A stretch of 64,000 nucleotides of DNA from Escherichia phage GEP101. Below are positions 628 through 34,554 of this stretch, one piece after another; the first letter of the stretch is position 1, and each line of letters opens with the position of its first letter. Made by a program: the position numbers and the translations under genes. The stretch is from the sequence record PQ036202. One strand, written 5' to 3'. The notes beneath the pieces were generated by a model, which had not been told where the DNA came from, searched no databases, and was given only the letters and a program-made list of their open reading frames with translations.

Positions 628-720
628 GGAAGATTAACCCTAAAAGGTAAGGGAGCAGTTTGCTAAACTGCCAGTAGCTGAGAAATCGGTGTACCAGTTC
701 AAGTCTGGTATCTTCCTCCA
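628..720 (+). tRNA. tRNA-Ser (anticodon GCU), type II with long variable arm, CCA encoded
   Basis: Acceptor GGAAGAT/ATCTTCC, anticodon stem GCAGT/ACTGC with loop TTGCTAA, T-arm ACCAG-TTCAAGT-CTGGT, 21-nt variable arm, 3-prime TCCA; folded by hand. Confidence 0.55.
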
Positions 721-724
721 ATTT

Positions 725-800
725 GAATCCGTGACAGAAATGGCTATGTGCCTGTCTGCAAAACAGGTTTATAAGGGTTCGAGTCCCTTCGGATTCTCCA
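725..800 (+). tRNA. tRNA-Cys (anticodon GCA), 76 nt, CCA encoded
   Basis: Perfect 7-bp acceptor GAATCCG/CGGATTC, U8, anticodon stem CCTGT/ACAGG with loop CTGCAAA, T-arm AAGGG-TTCGAGT-CCCTT, discriminator U73 typical of tRNA-Cys. Confidence 0.65.
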
Positions 801-28587: not shown

Positions 28588-29688
28588 TTATTCATAATCT
28601 CGTATAACTAACCCAACAGGGAACTGTAAAGAACCTTTACGAGTCATCTTCTGGAACTGAACCGTCAAAGGTTTCCCGATAAACTCTTCAGGATGTTCAG
28701 CAAGATACTGTTTCTTCTCATGAGTAGTCTTCCATGAGACATCTACAAAGACGTTAGGAAGAGTCTCTACAACGAACTTGCCATGACCACGTTTATCGGT
28801 CTTTACACCAGTCACTTTAAACTCTTCAGTGTGCATCTTCTTGTGCTTAATCAAGAAGTATGAACGGTGACAACACTCATAGAAGGAGTCTTCAGAGATT
28901 GAACGGTACATTGCACCTTCAAACTGAGCTTCAACCCACTTATCATGGGCTTCATCAAACTCTTCCCAAGAATTTACACGACGAGACTTAACAGGAACAA
29001 CTTTACAGCCATCTCTGAAGTCATTCAATGGTGAAGTCTCAATAATGTCTCTACGCTCAGGCCACGTCTTAGTACTGTCACAAATATCGTACCAGTAGAA
29101 CTGGAGTAGATGTCGGTCTGGATTGTCAGCATTCTTAATCATAGACACAATATCTTCTAAGTCCCAACCATGAGCATAAATCTCACCATCAAAGTCTTCG
29201 ACTTGTGGATGCAATTTAAGCAACAAAAGCAAATCTGGGATTAGTTCTGCTGGGACGTTGTAAATAGTATTCTCACGAGAATAAGCCGTGAAGCTAACTA
29301 AATCAGCATCTCTTGAAATTCTACAACGAACACCATCAAGTTTCGGTTGAGCATCAGCAGGGAACTTCAAATACTTTGCATGACTAACCTTTGCAGCATC
29401 ATGAGCAAGCTGCACACCTACCTTCTCAGTATTCTGTGCAGACTCTTTTGTGTAAGCATAACCTTTGCGTTCAACTTGCTTTTTATACTTAGCAGCAACT
29501 TCAAAGAGAGCTTGCTGTTCAGCGTTACGCTCATTCTTTTTACCGATGTTTTTAGGTTCTGCTGTATACTCTTCAAACATCATCTTGCCATTTTCTTTAC
29601 CGTAGGTTGTAATAACTTTGTCACCTACAGCAACGCATGACCAGACGTTAAAAGAGCCGTCTTTATTTTGTTTGTACAGTATTGTCAT
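28588..29688 (-). CDS. ATP-dependent DNA ligase
   Basis: Adenylation motif KLDGVR (KxDG) and overall T7-like ligase size. Confidence 0.8.
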   Translation of the reverse strand: MTILYKQNKDGSFNVWSCVAVGDKVITTYGKENGKMMFEEYTAEPKNIGKKNERNAEQQALFEVAAKYKKQVERKGYAYTKESAQNTEKVGVQLAHDAAKVSHAKYLKFPADAQPKLDGVRCRISRDADLVSFTAYSRENTIYNVPAELIPDLLLLLKLHPQVEDFDGEIYAHGWDLEDIVSMIKNADNPDRHLLQFYWYDICDSTKTWPERRDIIETSPLNDFRDGCKVVPVKSRRVNSWEEFDEAHDKWVEAQFEGAMYRSISEDSFYECCHRSYFLIKHKKMHTEEFKVTGVKTDKRGHGKFVVETLPNVFVDVSWKTTHEKKQYLAEHPEEFIGKPLTVQFQKMTRKGSLQFPVGLVIRDYE

Positions 29689-30552: not shown

Positions 30553-30743
30553 TACTCAATATCAATAAGTTCTTGTGCAATGCTTTTCAGATTACCTTTC
30601 AAGAAAACCTTCTCAGAACCTGAAAGAGATGAATTGTCAATTAACCTGTTCATTCTCTCAAACAACTTCTGCTTACGATTCTTGATAGTTTCCTTTGAAG
30701 CCCCTTTCATCATTGCTGCATGGGTTCTTCCACGGTGGCTCAT
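30534..30743 (-). CDS. hypothetical protein
   Basis: 69-aa basic ORF. Confidence 0.35.
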   Translation of the reverse strand: MSHRGRTHAAMMKGASKETIKNRKQKLFERMNRLIDNSSLSGSEKVFLKGNLKSIAQELIDIEYWRHQK

Positions 30744-30794
30744 AAGACCTCCTATATAAGATATTGTATAAGGTACTCTTCCCTGAGCACCTTG

Positions 30795-31328
30795 TCAAGA
30801 TAGTTTTGCAAACTCTCCGTGGAGTTTAATAGCAGCTTCACAGTAAGCTTTATGGGCTTCTTCTGGTGTGTCATGATAACCTAAAAACATCTTCTTACCT
30901 TTATAACTTATCTGTGCGACCCACTTACCAGACTTCTTCTTAAGACTTACACCCTTGTACCCAGATTTATTGGTGACTGGTTTACCTTTATTCCAAGCAC
31001 TTTGAAAGTCATCTGCTTCCCTTAAGTTTACAATCCTGTTGTCAAGTGAGTCTCCGTTGATATGGTCAATGATACCTTTTGGCATCTTGCCATACACGTA
31101 AAGCCATGCGAGTCTGTGTGCTTTATGTGCTTTCTTGTCAAAATAGATACTAACCTGTTTATGACCACTTGAATCAGTCTGGATATTACCTGCCACCTTT
31201 CCTGCATAATTACTGTTAAAAACACTAACAGCTCTTGATTTACCTTCTCTACGAAGCCAAGTAAAGACCCCTGTTTCGGGGTCATAGTGCAGCAGCTCCT
31301 TTAAACGTTTTTGTAAAATTAAATCCAT
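30795..31328 (-). CDS. HNH homing endonuclease with AP2-like DNA-binding domain
   Basis: IDHINGDSLDNRIVNLREA HNH motif; YKGVS...KWVAQISYKGKKMFLGYHDTPEEA AP2-like; start 3 nt after DNA polymerase stop. Confidence 0.75.
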   Translation of the reverse strand: MDLILQKRLKELLHYDPETGVFTWLRREGKSRAVSVFNSNYAGKVAGNIQTDSSGHKQVSIYFDKKAHKAHRLAWLYVYGKMPKGIIDHINGDSLDNRIVNLREADDFQSAWNKGKPVTNKSGYKGVSLKKKSGKWVAQISYKGKKMFLGYHDTPEEAHKAYCEAAIKLHGEFAKLS

Positions 31329-31331
31329 TAA

Positions 31332-31888
31332 TCAATGTACCTCATACCAGCTCTTACCAACCTTTGCTGTACCAGTTACAAGTGTTTCTTTCCTCAAACC
31401 TAAGTTTTTTGAAGCTTGTCCATACATCCAGTCAGCAATTGCTTTCATATCATGTGTCATACCCTCTGGACATTCCCAACTATTTTCATCGTGATATGCC
31501 AGAAGTAACCTTGCTCCGATAGCTGGTTTTCGAGCATTCAGTTTTGTCAGGCCATCTTCACAGGCTTTTCTTGCTGCTAGGTTGATGGCCTCATTCTGAA
31601 TCTGTGCTTCCGAACTCATCAGGAGGTAGTTCAGTAGTTTATGTGGAGATTTGCACCATATCCATGCTCCAGCGACCCTGATATAACCACCTTTAGCAAT
31701 TGAAGAGTTCTTCCCAAAAACCTCTTCCAGAGCCTTTTTAGACACCTTAAAATCAGCTTCTAAGCTATCAAGTAACTTCTTAATCTTTGGCAAACGCATA
31801 TAGTAAGTTTGTTTAGTCAATGCACCTTCTTCCGTAGATGATGCCTTGATAGTTTTTGCAAACTTCTCATCGCCAGCCCCGAACAATA
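31332..31888 (-). CDS. DNA polymerase family A, exon 2 (C-terminal, motif B second half and motif C)
   Basis: LFGAGDEKFAK aligns with T7 pol FLYGAGDEK; HDE motif C; no ATG at exon start (ORF track begins at TTG). Confidence 0.75.
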
Positions 31889-32156
31889 CATCTGGTCAAT
31901 ACACTCGCAAGGTGTACCAGTTCTCTTATGAACTTCTCCGCATTTCTACGGAGTGTCGGACTATATCACGTAGCAGTGATGCTACCGTTGCACTTGGGGA
32001 TGGCCATTAGCTTACCACCCTACTCTACTCAGTTCATACATTAAGTATGCTTTTCGATAGTCTCTGAACGTTCCTCTTAAGAGGCTTCGCTGCTGATTAC
32101 CATATCTTTCCAGACTTAGGCTTCCAGCAATTCACAACGTTTTACATGCGCCACTG
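31889..32156 (-). ncRNA. group I self-splicing intron (ORF-less) in DNA polymerase gene
   Basis: Minus-strand P/Q/R/S elements AATTGCTGGAA, AATCAGCAGC, GTTCAGAGACTATCG, GTGATATAGTCCG; IGS GCGCAT pairs exon end ATGCGT with U-G at splice site; terminal G. Confidence 0.8.
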
Positions 32157-34299
32157 ACGCATAAATGCCATTTTTGGCTTTCTTACGACCTTTTGTAATC
32201 TCGTGAAGAAGCTCCTCATCCTGCGTCTCCCTACAACGAACAATATCATCTTCCTTGTTTAGACCAAAGTAAATACTATTCAGTGTATGTGCATCAGTAC
32301 CTGTGTAGACTTCGTAGAGGTCATTCTCAGCATCATAACGAAGATACTTATCAGTTTCTGGATTGAGGTACTTATCGAGATGCTTGCAATAGTATCTTCC
32401 ATCCTCTTGCTTGGTAAATTCTACTGACTCTTTACCTTCAGTTACCGCTTTGGTGAAGTCTTTATCACCCATAAAGTTACACAGTAAAACAAGCTGTGCA
32501 GAGTTCTGGTCAACTGAAACGATATTAGTCCCTTCCTCGCAAATCCACACCTCCCTCATAGGTGCTCCATAGACAGCAGCACCAGACGGTACGTTTACAA
32601 TACCATATTGTGTCATACGTCCAGTTGAAGTACCAAATACCATTGCACCGGCACTAAGGCGACCATCAGGGCGAATCTGGTTCAACCAACCTTTTTCATC
32701 ATCCTTTGAGTTCTCAATAGTTCTACGTCGGTGCATCAAAGTGTAGTATTTCGCAATCTTCTGTCCAAGCTCACCTTCAATCGTATCATAAGATGATTCA
32801 GTAAGTTTTGGTGAAGTACGGATTAAGCAAGGCTCAAGCAAATCTGTGTACTTCTTCACAGACCAGTTATGCTCAATGTACTGGACACCTTCATGTTCAA
32901 CATAACTCAAACCACACCGTTCCACCATCTCATCCCACTTAGGATGCTTTGTAATCATCTTTTTGTTGTCTTTGAAACGACAAACTTTGACAGGACGACC
33001 GTCAGAGTCTTTCTTGTAGTTCCAGTCATCTGGAATCCAACCAACTGATTTCAAGTAGTCTTTAACAACTGCTACCTGAGTCATACGAGAAACTTCGAAC
33101 TCAATTGGTGTATATGGTGCATCAATCAAACCTGTGTAGCGACTTGACTCAAGCTCAAAGTGGTTAACGACATGGCTGTTATAGTACTTCACAGTTTTAA
33201 CTGTTTTTACTGGCTTCCAGTCTTTGCACTTCTTACCAATCTTTGCATTCAACTCATTGCAAATTGCACGAGCATCCTTCATTGCTACAAAACCTTCCTT
33301 GTACTCTTCACCAGTTACAGAGTTGGTTGGTGTATAGCAATTCCGCTTTTCAATGTTAAAAATCTTTGTAGTTGGCTTACCAAATGGCTTGATTTCATAT
33401 GTCTGCATCTCACCGTTACGTACCTGTTGACGATACTTTGTCTTAGGGTACTTGGTAATTCTTTTCAGTCCATCTGCATGACCAAATGCTTCAACATACT
33501 CATTCCAAGCTTTTGCAAACTCTTCTCCAGTGACTTTACCTTTGGTCTTAATAGTTGGAGGAAGATGTGGTTCAACTTCTGAAGCAAGCTCATTAGTCAA
33601 CTTGTCAAGTTCCTTTACATGAAACTCCATAAGCTCTTTATCAGCTTTCCAACCATTGATAGCCTGTTGACTCATCCAGAAAGATGTTTCTTTAGCTCGC
33701 ATGTAAGTCTCATAAGTGTCTATACCACACTTCTTAAGCTTGAGATACTCGTTATCAAGTGCCCGTTTAGTTTTGGCGTTGATACGGATATCTTCCACAA
33801 CACGAGTGAAGATTTCTGCATTCCACACACCCCAATGTTCAATCTCTGGTTTACGGACACCAACACGAGCACCCCATGCTGCCAAGCCATGAGCACCTTT
33901 ATAGCCCTTTGGAGTTGGTCTATCCATCCACTGAACACGAGACTGGATAAGAGAATCCTGAAAGAAATTACTCCACGGCTTACACTTTGGATTATCAAAG
34001 TTCCACAAATCAGGTGCAATGTGGTTGAAAACCCACCAGTCATAACCGAGACCGTTATGGATGCAAAGACGTTTTGCCTTTAACGCAAACTCAACACCTT
34101 CACGCAAACCACCCTTAATGTACTTGGTGTACTTGTGACCGAGGATAGGCTCATCTGTAAAGACCCATACAGGTGGCTCTTCATCGTCAGATTTATAGTC
34201 TGCGAAAGCCATGACGTGTACTTTAGTGAACTCAAGGAGTAAACCATCAGTTTCTGTATCACCAACTAAGTGTAAGTTTTTAAAATCTACGTTTTCCAT
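32157..34299 (-). CDS. DNA polymerase family A, exon 1 (3-5 exonuclease and polymerase motif A, first half of motif B)
   Basis: GDTETDGL exo motif (cf. Pol I DTETDSL), DQNSAQLVLL motif A-like, RKKAKNGIYA start of motif B; start at ATG 34299 with GAGGGA RBS. Confidence 0.8.
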
Positions 34300-34554
34300 T
34301 TCTACTCCCTCTAAATCATTAACCACATACATTACTGCAAAAAATTATAAAAAGCAAGTTGACAATGTACTTGACAAGGTGTTAATCTTTGCGAAGTGGG
34401 TTTTTACTTAAAAGGTTACTTAACAGTTTAACTATACAGATACTTTAAAACTCTTAAAAGATTATTTAATAGCTTTTAAAAGTTTTAAAGTATAACGTAT
34501 AGAATACGTTAAGATAAAAGATTAAAACTTAATAGTTACTTAAAAGAGGCTTAC

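Follow-up and report, generated by a model that had tools for sequence, protein, structure and literature searches.

Knowledge of group I introns in phage polymerase genes goes back to SPO1 in 1990. Within family A DNA polymerase genes they have been described from SPO1, SP82, Bastille, PhiI, W31, phiL7, Pf-WMP3 and many Bastillevirinae. The published sites correspond to positions 674, 676 and 881 of E. coli Pol I, and the subgroup IA2 criteria given for the introns of PhiI, W31 and Pf-WMP3 are the lack of P2, the presence of P7.1 and P7.2 with a GUA-containing linker, and an ORF in P6a (PMC3428280). An intron of this ordinary kind is already known in the Felixounaviruses, the Felix O1-like myoviruses of Salmonella and E. 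coli. The genome paper of phage Meda (Microbiol Resour Announc 2019, MH586731) reports an ORF-less polymerase intron (PMC6486253), the SPJ41 paper reports two introns with Rfam intron matches, and a 2018 paper on the DHHRN family lists Endo VII-motif proteins of JH2, EC6 and FSL SP-010 as intron-encoded (PMC6083498). The genome paper of Felix O1 itself correctly describes this phage as having no introns. In the Felix O1 and Felixounavirus literature we found no structural, splicing or population study of the polymerase intron. A collaborative arrangement of a free-standing endonuclease with an ORF-less intron is known for F-CphI and the psbA intron of cyanophage S-PM2, and such pairs have been reviewed (PMC3984707).

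The locus described here lies on the minus strand of a 64,000-nucleotide stretch of DNA from Escherichia phage GEP101 (PQ036202), hereafter the window. The region is about 99% identical to Felixounavirus genomes, the closest relatives being SWJM-02, D1-2, SPJ41 and BPS17W1. The order on the minus strand is polymerase exon 1, insert, exon 2, an HNH_3+AP2 gene, several small ORFs and a DNA ligase gene, with the following features.

34332..32157, minus strand: DNA polymerase exon 1, 725 codons plus 1 nt (ORF list, spliced translation, T7 polymerase alignment).
32156..31889, minus strand: group I intron, ORF-less, IA2-like, 268 nt (Rfam RF00028, exon colinearity, our own model R1 and covariation).
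31888..31332, minus strand: DNA polymerase exon 2, 2 nt plus 184 codons and stop (ORF list, translation, T7 alignment).
31864..32187, minus strand: intron with its putatively co-converted exon flanks, -31..-1 and +1..+25 (mismatch maps, identity profile).
31328..30795, minus strand: free-standing homing-endonuclease gene with HNH_3 and AP2 domains (Pfam HNH_3 E=9e-15, AP2 E=3e-12).
29688..28588, minus strand: DNA ligase gene (ORF list / Pfam).

We interpret the insert, with a probability of about 0.93, as an IA2-like group I intron in polymerase motif B that is predicted to splice and that represents an ORF-less derivative of a mobile intron. The introns of Meda, SPJ41, SWJM-02, D1-2 and BPS17W1 resemble it in essentially every respect, being 268 nt long, 98.5-99.6% identical, ORF-less and at the same site. 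The alleles of JH2, EC6, FSL SP-010, VSe11 and VpaE1 share the site, the flanking exon bases and a core that is 96-98% identical, but differ in carrying a 160-aa Endonuclease_7 ORF in an extended P6a where the window has only a 4-bp P6a hairpin. Like the published family A polymerase introns of phages, the window intron occurs in a lytic phage, lacks P2, has P7.1 and P7.2 with a GUA linker and interrupts a conserved catalytic motif, and the published introns resemble the Felixounavirus sister alleles in that the endonuclease ORF, when present, lies in P6a. The published introns encode HNH enzymes, whereas the Felixounavirus family encodes Endo VII/DHHRN enzymes or none; furthermore, the former were shown to splice, whereas splicing of the Felixounavirus intron is predicted from sequence.

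The interrupted gene is the sole family A DNA polymerase gene of the window phage. The exonuclease region and motif A lie in exon 1 and motif C (AYHDE) in exon 2, while motif B is divided between them, its first half (...RKKAKNGIYA) belonging to exon 1 and its second (LLFGAGDEK) to exon 2. With motifs A and C thus separated, neither exon can encode a polymerase on its own. The Pfam profile DNA_pol_A matches exon 2 over positions 218-381 with 24.2 bits, under the curated cut-off of 34.3. A preliminary description made from the sequence had the polymerase frame stopping at 32116 and resuming at 31888, and the ORF list agrees: the unspliced exon-1 frame runs 13 codons into the insert, ends at TAA (32118..32116) and reopens at 31888. 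The exon borders it proposed, ...RKKAKNGIYA plus T at the end of exon 1 and TA TTG TTC, read as (L)LFGAGDEK, at the start of exon 2, are likewise those of our translation. Once the insert is removed a single open frame of 910 aa results, and only then do motifs A, B and C follow each other in one polypeptide. The break had also been placed in motif B, in agreement with the spliced peptide GRKKAKNGIYALLFGAGDEKF, which aligns ungapped with T7 DNA polymerase 517-TRDNAKTFIYGFLYGAGDEKI; the alignment of the spliced protein with T7 residues 517-621 continues straight over the junction (E=3e-9).

The Rfam family Intron_gpI (RF00028) matches the insert with 62.1 bits against a gathering score of 50 (E=2.4e-13; 64-kb window, 4227 families), which is the positive outcome of a covariance-model check that the preliminary description had proposed. 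The corresponding intron of phage Mushroom scores 62.3 bits. We rejected the limits given by Rfam (31936..32219), in which P1/P2 are forced into exon 1 and the alignment ends at P9, and adopted 32156..31889 as fixed by intron-less alleles; these are the limits given earlier. A 600-nt query containing the spliced junction yielded one ungapped match to many relatives, including Felix O1, AN17P8 and ph2-2. In eight intron-less genomes (Felix O1, AN17P8, ph2-2, wV8, SUSP2, Bas63, CRP22 and Z31) the gene runs colinear with the spliced sequence, and the encoded peptide is KNGIYALLFGAGDEK / RKKAKNGIYALLFGAGDEKFA as in the spliced window, bar one A/S difference. When 17 frame-preserving boundary choices (±3 nt) were compared, only 32156..31889 yielded the intron-less peptide, and this choice in addition places U at -1 and ends the intron with G. 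Ligation of GCG-T to TA-TTG, as had been suggested, is predicted to give IYALLFGAGDEK in frame, with ...TATGCGT|TATTGTTC... as the ligated-exon DNA junction and NGIYALLFGAGDEK as the junction peptide of the spliced polymerase. From its sequence features 32156..31889 is a group I intron of the polymerase gene, for which splicing is predicted.

There is no sense-strand ORF within the 268 nt, and the window allele encodes no homing endonuclease of its own; the intron had been called ORF-less, which is true of this allele, while sister alleles do carry an endonuclease gene. Two mechanical antisense ORFs with TTG starts (54 and 62 aa) overlap the intron and have no Pfam match. Searches of the 64-kb window with Rfam at gathering score, at E<=0.01 and with model R1 gave no second group I intron, so that a second intron of the SPJ41/Meda type must lie beyond the window. 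In Meda nrdD is interrupted.

The predicted fold is composed of the following elements, all on the minus strand, where n = 32157 - window coordinate.

32162..32146: P1, exon -6..-1 AUGCGU (32162..32157) with n6-11 GCGCAU (32151..32146), loop CAGUG.
32156..32152 with 31888..31884: proposed P10, n1-5 CAGUG with exon 2 +1..+5 UAUUG (sequence).
32139..32133 with 31992..31986: P3, n18-24 with n165-171 (drawn by hand; RNAfold, covariation).
32132..32122: P element AAUUGCUGGAA (sequence).
32129..32124 with 32096..32091: P4, n28-33 with n61-66 (drawn by hand; RNAfold, covariation).
32120..32100: P5/P5a, n37-57, GGAA (GNRA) loop.
32098..32089: Q element AAUCAGCAGC (sequence).
32090..32068: P6/P6a, n67-89, minimal hairpin CCUC-UUAA-GAGG.
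32069..32055: R element GUUCAGAGACUAUCG (sequence).
32064..32058 with 31963..31958: P7 pseudoknot, n93 and n95-99 with n194-199, A94 bulged.
32049..32035: P7.1, n108-122 (RNAfold, covariation).
32020..31998: P7.2, n137-159 (RNAfold, covariation).
31985..31970: P8, n172-187 (RNAfold, covariation).
31969..31957: S element GUGAUAUAGUCCG (sequence).
31953..31936: P9, n204-221, GAAA loop; covaries.
31934..31919: P9.1, n223-238 (in the RNAfold centroid).
31916..31900: tentative P9.2, n241-257 (hand assignment only).
31889: terminal guanosine G31889, 3' splice site (sequence).

All four elements P, Q, R and S were located on the minus strand where the preliminary description had them, and the same holds for its guide GCGCAT at 32151..32146, the partner ATGCGT at 32162..32157 with a U-G wobble at the splice site, and the terminal G at 31889. 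The core helices P3-P8 with the P3/P7 pseudoknot are present as well, the span of P7 (31958..32064) enclosing P7.1, P7.2, the 3' strand of P3, and P8. In P1 the wobble pair U32157.G32151 lies at the 5' splice site, and 6 of 6 pairs covary among related introns. The P10 pairing is possible, 3 of its 5 pairs being G.U. In 9 of 9 intron-bearing alleles TAT GCG T|TA TTG is unchanged, comprising the exon bases of P1 and the first exon-2 bases as partner of P10, whereas intron-less alleles vary at all six synonymous sites there. The in-frame stop UAA (32118..32116) falls in the P5-P5a strand. Standard pairs are formed throughout (76 of 76 proposed), and the RNAfold centroid, obtained with no prior knowledge, recovers ten helices, namely P3, P4, P5, P5a, P6a, P7.1, P7.2, P8, P9 and P9.1. 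The folding-energy z-score of -2.1 is a modest signal taken alone. P9.2 is assigned by hand since this stretch is invariant in all alleles. P2 is absent, with only GUAAAA separating P1 from P3, and the linker joining P7.1 to P7.2 is AACUGAGUAGAGUA, which contains GUA. Because of these two features and the P6a ORF of sister alleles the intron looks IA2-like, a designation that reflects matching features and not phylogenetic placement.

Covariation was assessed with a covariance model of the element (R1), which has 228 positions of a 279-nt element and ends at P9. R1 finds full-length relatives in an N4-like RNA polymerase gene of Erwinia phage MIF8, in terminase genes of Vibrio phages, in ribonucleotide reductase of Shewanella phage 1/4 and in the polymerase of phage 19-1-2. 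The final alignment (A4) comprised 10 related introns, all of them full-length ORF-less matches; an earlier one (A3) was discarded, as ORF-bearing introns were misaligned across their inserts. Among the 10 introns 93.9% of the cells are paired, against 33-44% with partners slid by 1-3 columns, values that carry a bias in favour of structure from the fitting of the 10-sequence alignment to the model. Both-side changes occur in 45 of 55 pairs, the covariation score is 0.651 as compared to at most 0.122 in slid controls, and none of 500 shuffles attains any of the observed measures. Covariation backs P3, P4, P5, P6, P7.1, P7.2, P8 and P9. P7 lies outside the model, yet is conserved with compensatory changes in relatives (first pair G-C to A-U in two sequences, CG/UA to UA/CG in one). 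Within the nearly invariant Felixounavirus orthologues there are only two compensatory pairs, C176-G183 to U-A in P8 and the basal C-G to U-A in P6a.

On this structure splicing would proceed as follows. After transcription the RNA would fold so that the guide GCGCAU pairs with the exon-1 end AUGCGU, and a free guanosine bound at G95-C198 of P7, the presumed guanosine-binding pair, would attack after U32157. G31889 would then take the guanosine site and the exons would be ligated as GCG-U + UA-UUG, giving one 910-aa polymerase with motif B intact. From unspliced RNA only a 738-aa product lacking motif C would be made, and splicing would thus be required for replication. In SPJ41 and Meda, which are viable, propagated phages, the only polymerase gene contains an intron 98.5-99.6% identical to this one.

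The exon flanks of the intron point to mobility at the DNA level. Compared to JH2/VpaE1, which have the ORF-bearing intron, the window shows no difference between -31 and +25 and diverges by about 25% outside this tract; compared to intron-less AN17P8 it shows 14 differences within -22..+20 and, downstream, almost none elsewhere. Beyond the flanks the window gene follows the intron-less AN17P8/ph2-2 backbone. As judged from these mismatch maps, the polymerase gene of the window is a chimera of an AN17P8-type backbone with the intron and about 55 nt of JH2-type exon sequence, a pattern that looks like the classical trace of co-conversion left by homing or by the reverse process. Either intron gain in the window lineage or precise loss in the AN17P8 lineage would fit the chimera. 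Meda has a shorter co-converted tract. No intron-less genome with exactly intron-type flanks was found, the closest being SUSP2, which differs at one position of the 17-nt core and is 88% identical across 60 nt. Together, presence/absence polymorphism at one site and co-conversion of flanks suggest that the intron is, or recently was, mobile.

On a larger scale, the initial 1.9 kb of the polymerase gene shows about 96% identity in every comparison, and the intron 96-98%. In the final 300 nt of exon 1, the whole of exon 2 and the HNH gene identity falls to 56-85%, so that the intron marks the upstream border of a recombination hot spot. Genomes with only 75-85% identity over the 300-nt exon stretches on either side of the intron share 96-98% identity in the intron itself. 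A recent sweep of the intron, as suggested by its being more conserved than the exons, was dropped as an explanation, since the first 1.9 kb of the gene is equally conserved (about 96%). The fine map of the chimera is sounder evidence of mobility than this contrast in identity. We also set aside the idea that the Felix O1-type junction was recoded to escape an endonuclease; 8 of 9 codons differ there, which corresponds to the general divergence between allele classes in this hot spot. The exon sequence around and downstream of the site is the unusually diverged part of the gene.

About 256 phage records share the polymerase region, and in about 96 of them the intron is present with at least 80% of its length; an internal ORF is found in about 41 of these 96. 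Three forms were distinguished.

268-nt form: minimal and ORF-less; window, Meda, SPJ41, SWJM-02, D1-2, BPS17W1 and others.
780-805 nt form: 160-aa ORF in the P6a loop, between n77 and n80; JH2, EC6, FSL SP-010, VSe11 and VpaE1.
311-nt form: ORF removed between short CCTAA repeats; Mushroom and Tf.

The 160-aa ORF has a Pfam Endonuclease_7 domain (E=1e-19) with Cys-rich repeats ahead of the domain, and it is frameshifted in VpaE1. The 311-nt form retains both ends of the ORF insert and, by this sequence evidence, is demonstrably a deletion derivative of the ORF form. Two alleles of the ORF form exist, about 28% different at the nucleotide level, which share the insertion point and the extended P6a stem UCUCUGUUAGGA/UCCUAACAGAGA. 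The core haplotype of the window groups with the JH2-type ORF form. A single substitution is private to the window (A to G at n153, in the P7.2 loop), and the P5a loop GGAA, in place of GUAA, is common to the window and SPJ41.

We consider a decayed mobile intron that now depends on endonucleases in trans as the most likely history. The intron would be a gene-less derivative of the sister-phage intron that has a homing endonuclease of the Endo VII motif (DHHRN) in P6a, and would have reached the backbone of the window through double-strand-break repair with co-conversion of about 55 nt of exon. In its present form it would be unable to home alone, and in mixed infections it could spread with an endonuclease provided in trans and in no other way. 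Since it interrupts the target site, the intron would shield the host gene from that endonuclease.

Three other explanations were weighed. The insert might be dead and non-splicing, with polypeptides of 738 aa and about 184 aa assembling into an active enzyme. Most GenBank records do annotate two 'DNA polymerase' CDSs and the TTG at 31886 offers a start for exon 2, but exon 2 has no Shine-Dalgarno sequence or conserved start codon, the annotated starts differ by record, and the gene is interrupted halfway along the O-helix, between the counterparts of T7 Y526 and Y530. With a ribozyme core that is complete and under structural constraint, P1 and P10 exon bases frozen only in intron-bearing alleles, insert limits that coincide to the nucleotide with the U.G pair and the terminal G, and an exact intron-less peptide restored by removal of the insert, we regard a split polymerase as highly unlikely. 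Alternatively, the 268-nt form could be ancestral and never invaded, the forms of about 800 nt having arisen by later invasion of P6a by an Endo VII-type gene. Invasion of intron loops by endonuclease genes is an accepted route (PMC3984707), and the hairpin CCUC-UUAA-GAGG is compact and not an exact or simple deletion product of the ORF form. However, two endonuclease alleles about 28% different share position and extended stem, which on this history would require either a pair of identical invasions or a single ancient one into a core that has since stayed 97% identical; the 311-nt form is moreover a deletion derivative, and the frameshifted endonuclease of VpaE1 shows decay under way. An ancestral 268-nt form is in our view rather unlikely. 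Given the common insertion point and stem of the two ORF alleles and the JH2-like core of the window, loss of the ORF appears favoured over ancestral ORF-lessness by roughly two to one.

The remaining explanation concerns the HNH_3+AP2 gene, which starts 3 nt past the polymerase stop codon and 560 nt from the intron site and is a possible helper of the intron. In a case of collaborative homing its enzyme would cut intron-less alleles at or near the site, the intron would split that site and the pair would be co-inherited. Apart from this proximity, such a partnership would agree with the recombination hot spot extending from the intron site through the HNH gene, and with the distribution of the window-type HNH allele (at least 95% identity), which in every genome examined occurs together with either an intron-split junction (window, SPJ41, L27, REP6 and REP12) or a strongly different synonymous junction (AN17P8, ph2-2, CRP22 and Z31). 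Against this, the presence of the HNH gene is uncoupled from that of the intron, as all four combinations were found: neither in wV8, the HNH gene only in Felix O1 and ph2-2, the intron only in JH2, JLBYU32 and VpaE1, and both in VSe11. Exon 2 and the HNH gene form one haplotype block of 98-100% identity, and the apparent association with the intron is due to this linkage. Felix O1 has the same junction variant with an HNH allele that is only 61% identical, divergence of the junction variant does not exceed that of the allele class around it, and an intron-borne Endo VII-type endonuclease already explains homing at this site. The S-PM2 system is similar in that the DHHRN endonucleases of the sister alleles belong to the family of F-CphI, but unlike there the free-standing neighbour in the window is of the HNH-AP2 type with a presence uncoupled from the intron, and the DHHRN enzyme of sister Felixounaviruses lies inside the intron, not beside it. 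Collaborative homing is thus unlikely here.

Returning to the decayed mobile intron, a tentative extension, to which we give somewhat less than even odds, is that the polymerase alleles of Felixounaviruses preserve all stages of the homing-endonuclease life cycle at one site in one living population. These stages may be naive alleles (wV8, SUSP2), an intact endonuclease (JH2, VSe11), a frameshifted one (VpaE1), a deleted one in the 311-nt form (Mushroom, Tf), the minimal 268-nt intron (window) and diverged intron-less sites (Felix O1 type). The ORF-less intron may on such a reading persist by shielding an essential gene from the endonuclease of co-infecting relatives, and it might cooperate with the adjacent HNH-AP2 gene. 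If true, this would offer a tractable E. coli/Salmonella phage system for cyclical gain, decay and loss, for trans-homing and for collaborative homing, as well as a fourth site of intron insertion (motif B, about Pol I 764), also used in the unrelated phage polymerases of KBNP1711 and 19-1-2. The biology is nothing new in kind. A modest added value lies in natural variants with intact, decayed or no endonuclease, together with intron-less ones, in easily grown coliphages and Salmonella phages; the allele set and the visible 55-nt tract could serve to measure trans-homing and the protection of an essential gene by the intron. There is also a consequence for annotation, in that most records list two polymerase genes where there should be one joined CDS and an intron feature, and many of the affected phages are candidates for food safety or phage therapy. 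The annotators of Meda joined the two exons.

As to the site itself, the intron splits the Leu codon corresponding to T7 F528 after its first base; this residue lies between Y526 and Y530 of the O-helix (motif B). We take T7 K522, Y526 and Y530 to correspond to K758, F762 and Y766 of E. coli Pol I, and by this standard correspondence the site would be at about L764, which differs from the published sites at 674, 676 and 881. The motif-B site recurs in KBNP1711 (...RDNAKTFIYAF | ...GAGDAK) and in 19-1-2 (...GKGITYG | MYGAQ), and the latter phage has a second polymerase intron at YYH|DE, equivalent to site 881.

Around the intron, a recombination hot spot was recognized by a drop in identity to other Felixounaviruses, and a free-standing homing-endonuclease gene was found in this same region:

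window ~30700..32450, minus strand: recombination hot spot
window 30795..31328, minus strand: free-standing homing-endonuclease gene with HNH_3 and AP2 domains

Over its initial 1.9 kb the polymerase gene shows ~96% identity to other Felixounaviruses. Values of 56-85% apply to a stretch that begins ~300 nt upstream of where the intron is inserted and takes in exon 2 as well as the HNH gene, with the intron itself keeping 96-98% identity within the hot spot. The HNH_3-AP2 gene starts 3 nt past the stop codon of the polymerase in the window. Its alleles are strongly divergent (56-99% nucleotide identity among Felixounaviruses), and it is missing in wV8, JH2, JLBYU32 and VpaE1. Within the intron, the G at nt 153 (window 32004, minus strand), located in the P7.2 loop, is private to the window, all other alleles examined having A. 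The P5a loop reads GGAA in the window and SPJ41 versus GUAA in the others, both being GNRA loops.

Some sister alleles, that is, the same intron at the same site in other Felixounaviruses, carry an endonuclease gene of their own:

L003:2609-3091 (phage JH2), also in L008, L009 and L010: Endo VII-motif (DHHRN) endonuclease gene, 160 aa, in intron P6a

Two alleles of this gene were distinguished, with ~28% nucleotide difference, and in VpaE1 a frameshift breaks it into two partial ORFs.

Beyond the sister alleles, we identified close structural relatives of the intron in other genes, as well as inserts that carry an ORF and a group I core and interrupt family A polymerase genes of other phage groups:

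L014:2455-2703 (Erwinia phage MIF8), with L019, L020 and L021: close structural relatives
L015:2459-3300 (phage KBNP1711): polymerase insert
L022:337-1072 and L022:1420-1700 (phage 19-1-2): polymerase inserts
L012:2563-3569 (crAss-like phage cr3_1): polymerase insert

With the covariance model built here the structural relatives score 61-131 bits. They break genes for an N4-like RNA polymerase subunit, a Vibrio phage terminase and a Shewanella phage ribonucleotide reductase, the Vibrio phage terminase genes (L019 and L020) containing two introns apiece, and most of them lack an intron annotation. In KBNP1711 and 19-1-2 the polymerase is broken inside motif B, at or adjoining the site of the window's intron. 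A further intron of 19-1-2, this one without an ORF, lies in motif C at YYH|DE, which is the PhiI/W31 site.

Felixounavirus polymerase DNA with 85-96% identity to the window was also detected in MG065664 and MG065668 (named Campylobacter phage A132/A126), both with the intron, and in GU169904 (Staphylococcus phage SA1), which suggests that these assemblies are mislabelled or contaminated.

No second group I intron was detected within the 64-kb window. For SPJ41 and Meda, published notes describe a second intervening sequence, outside the window: 'two introns' are given for SPJ41 and, for Meda, an HNH endonuclease splitting the anaerobic ribonucleotide reductase large-subunit gene (PMC6486253). 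Near the start of the window are two adjacent tRNA genes, probably part of a Felixounavirus tRNA cluster located mostly outside it:

window 628..800, plus strand: tRNA-Ser(GCU) and tRNA-Cys(GCA)
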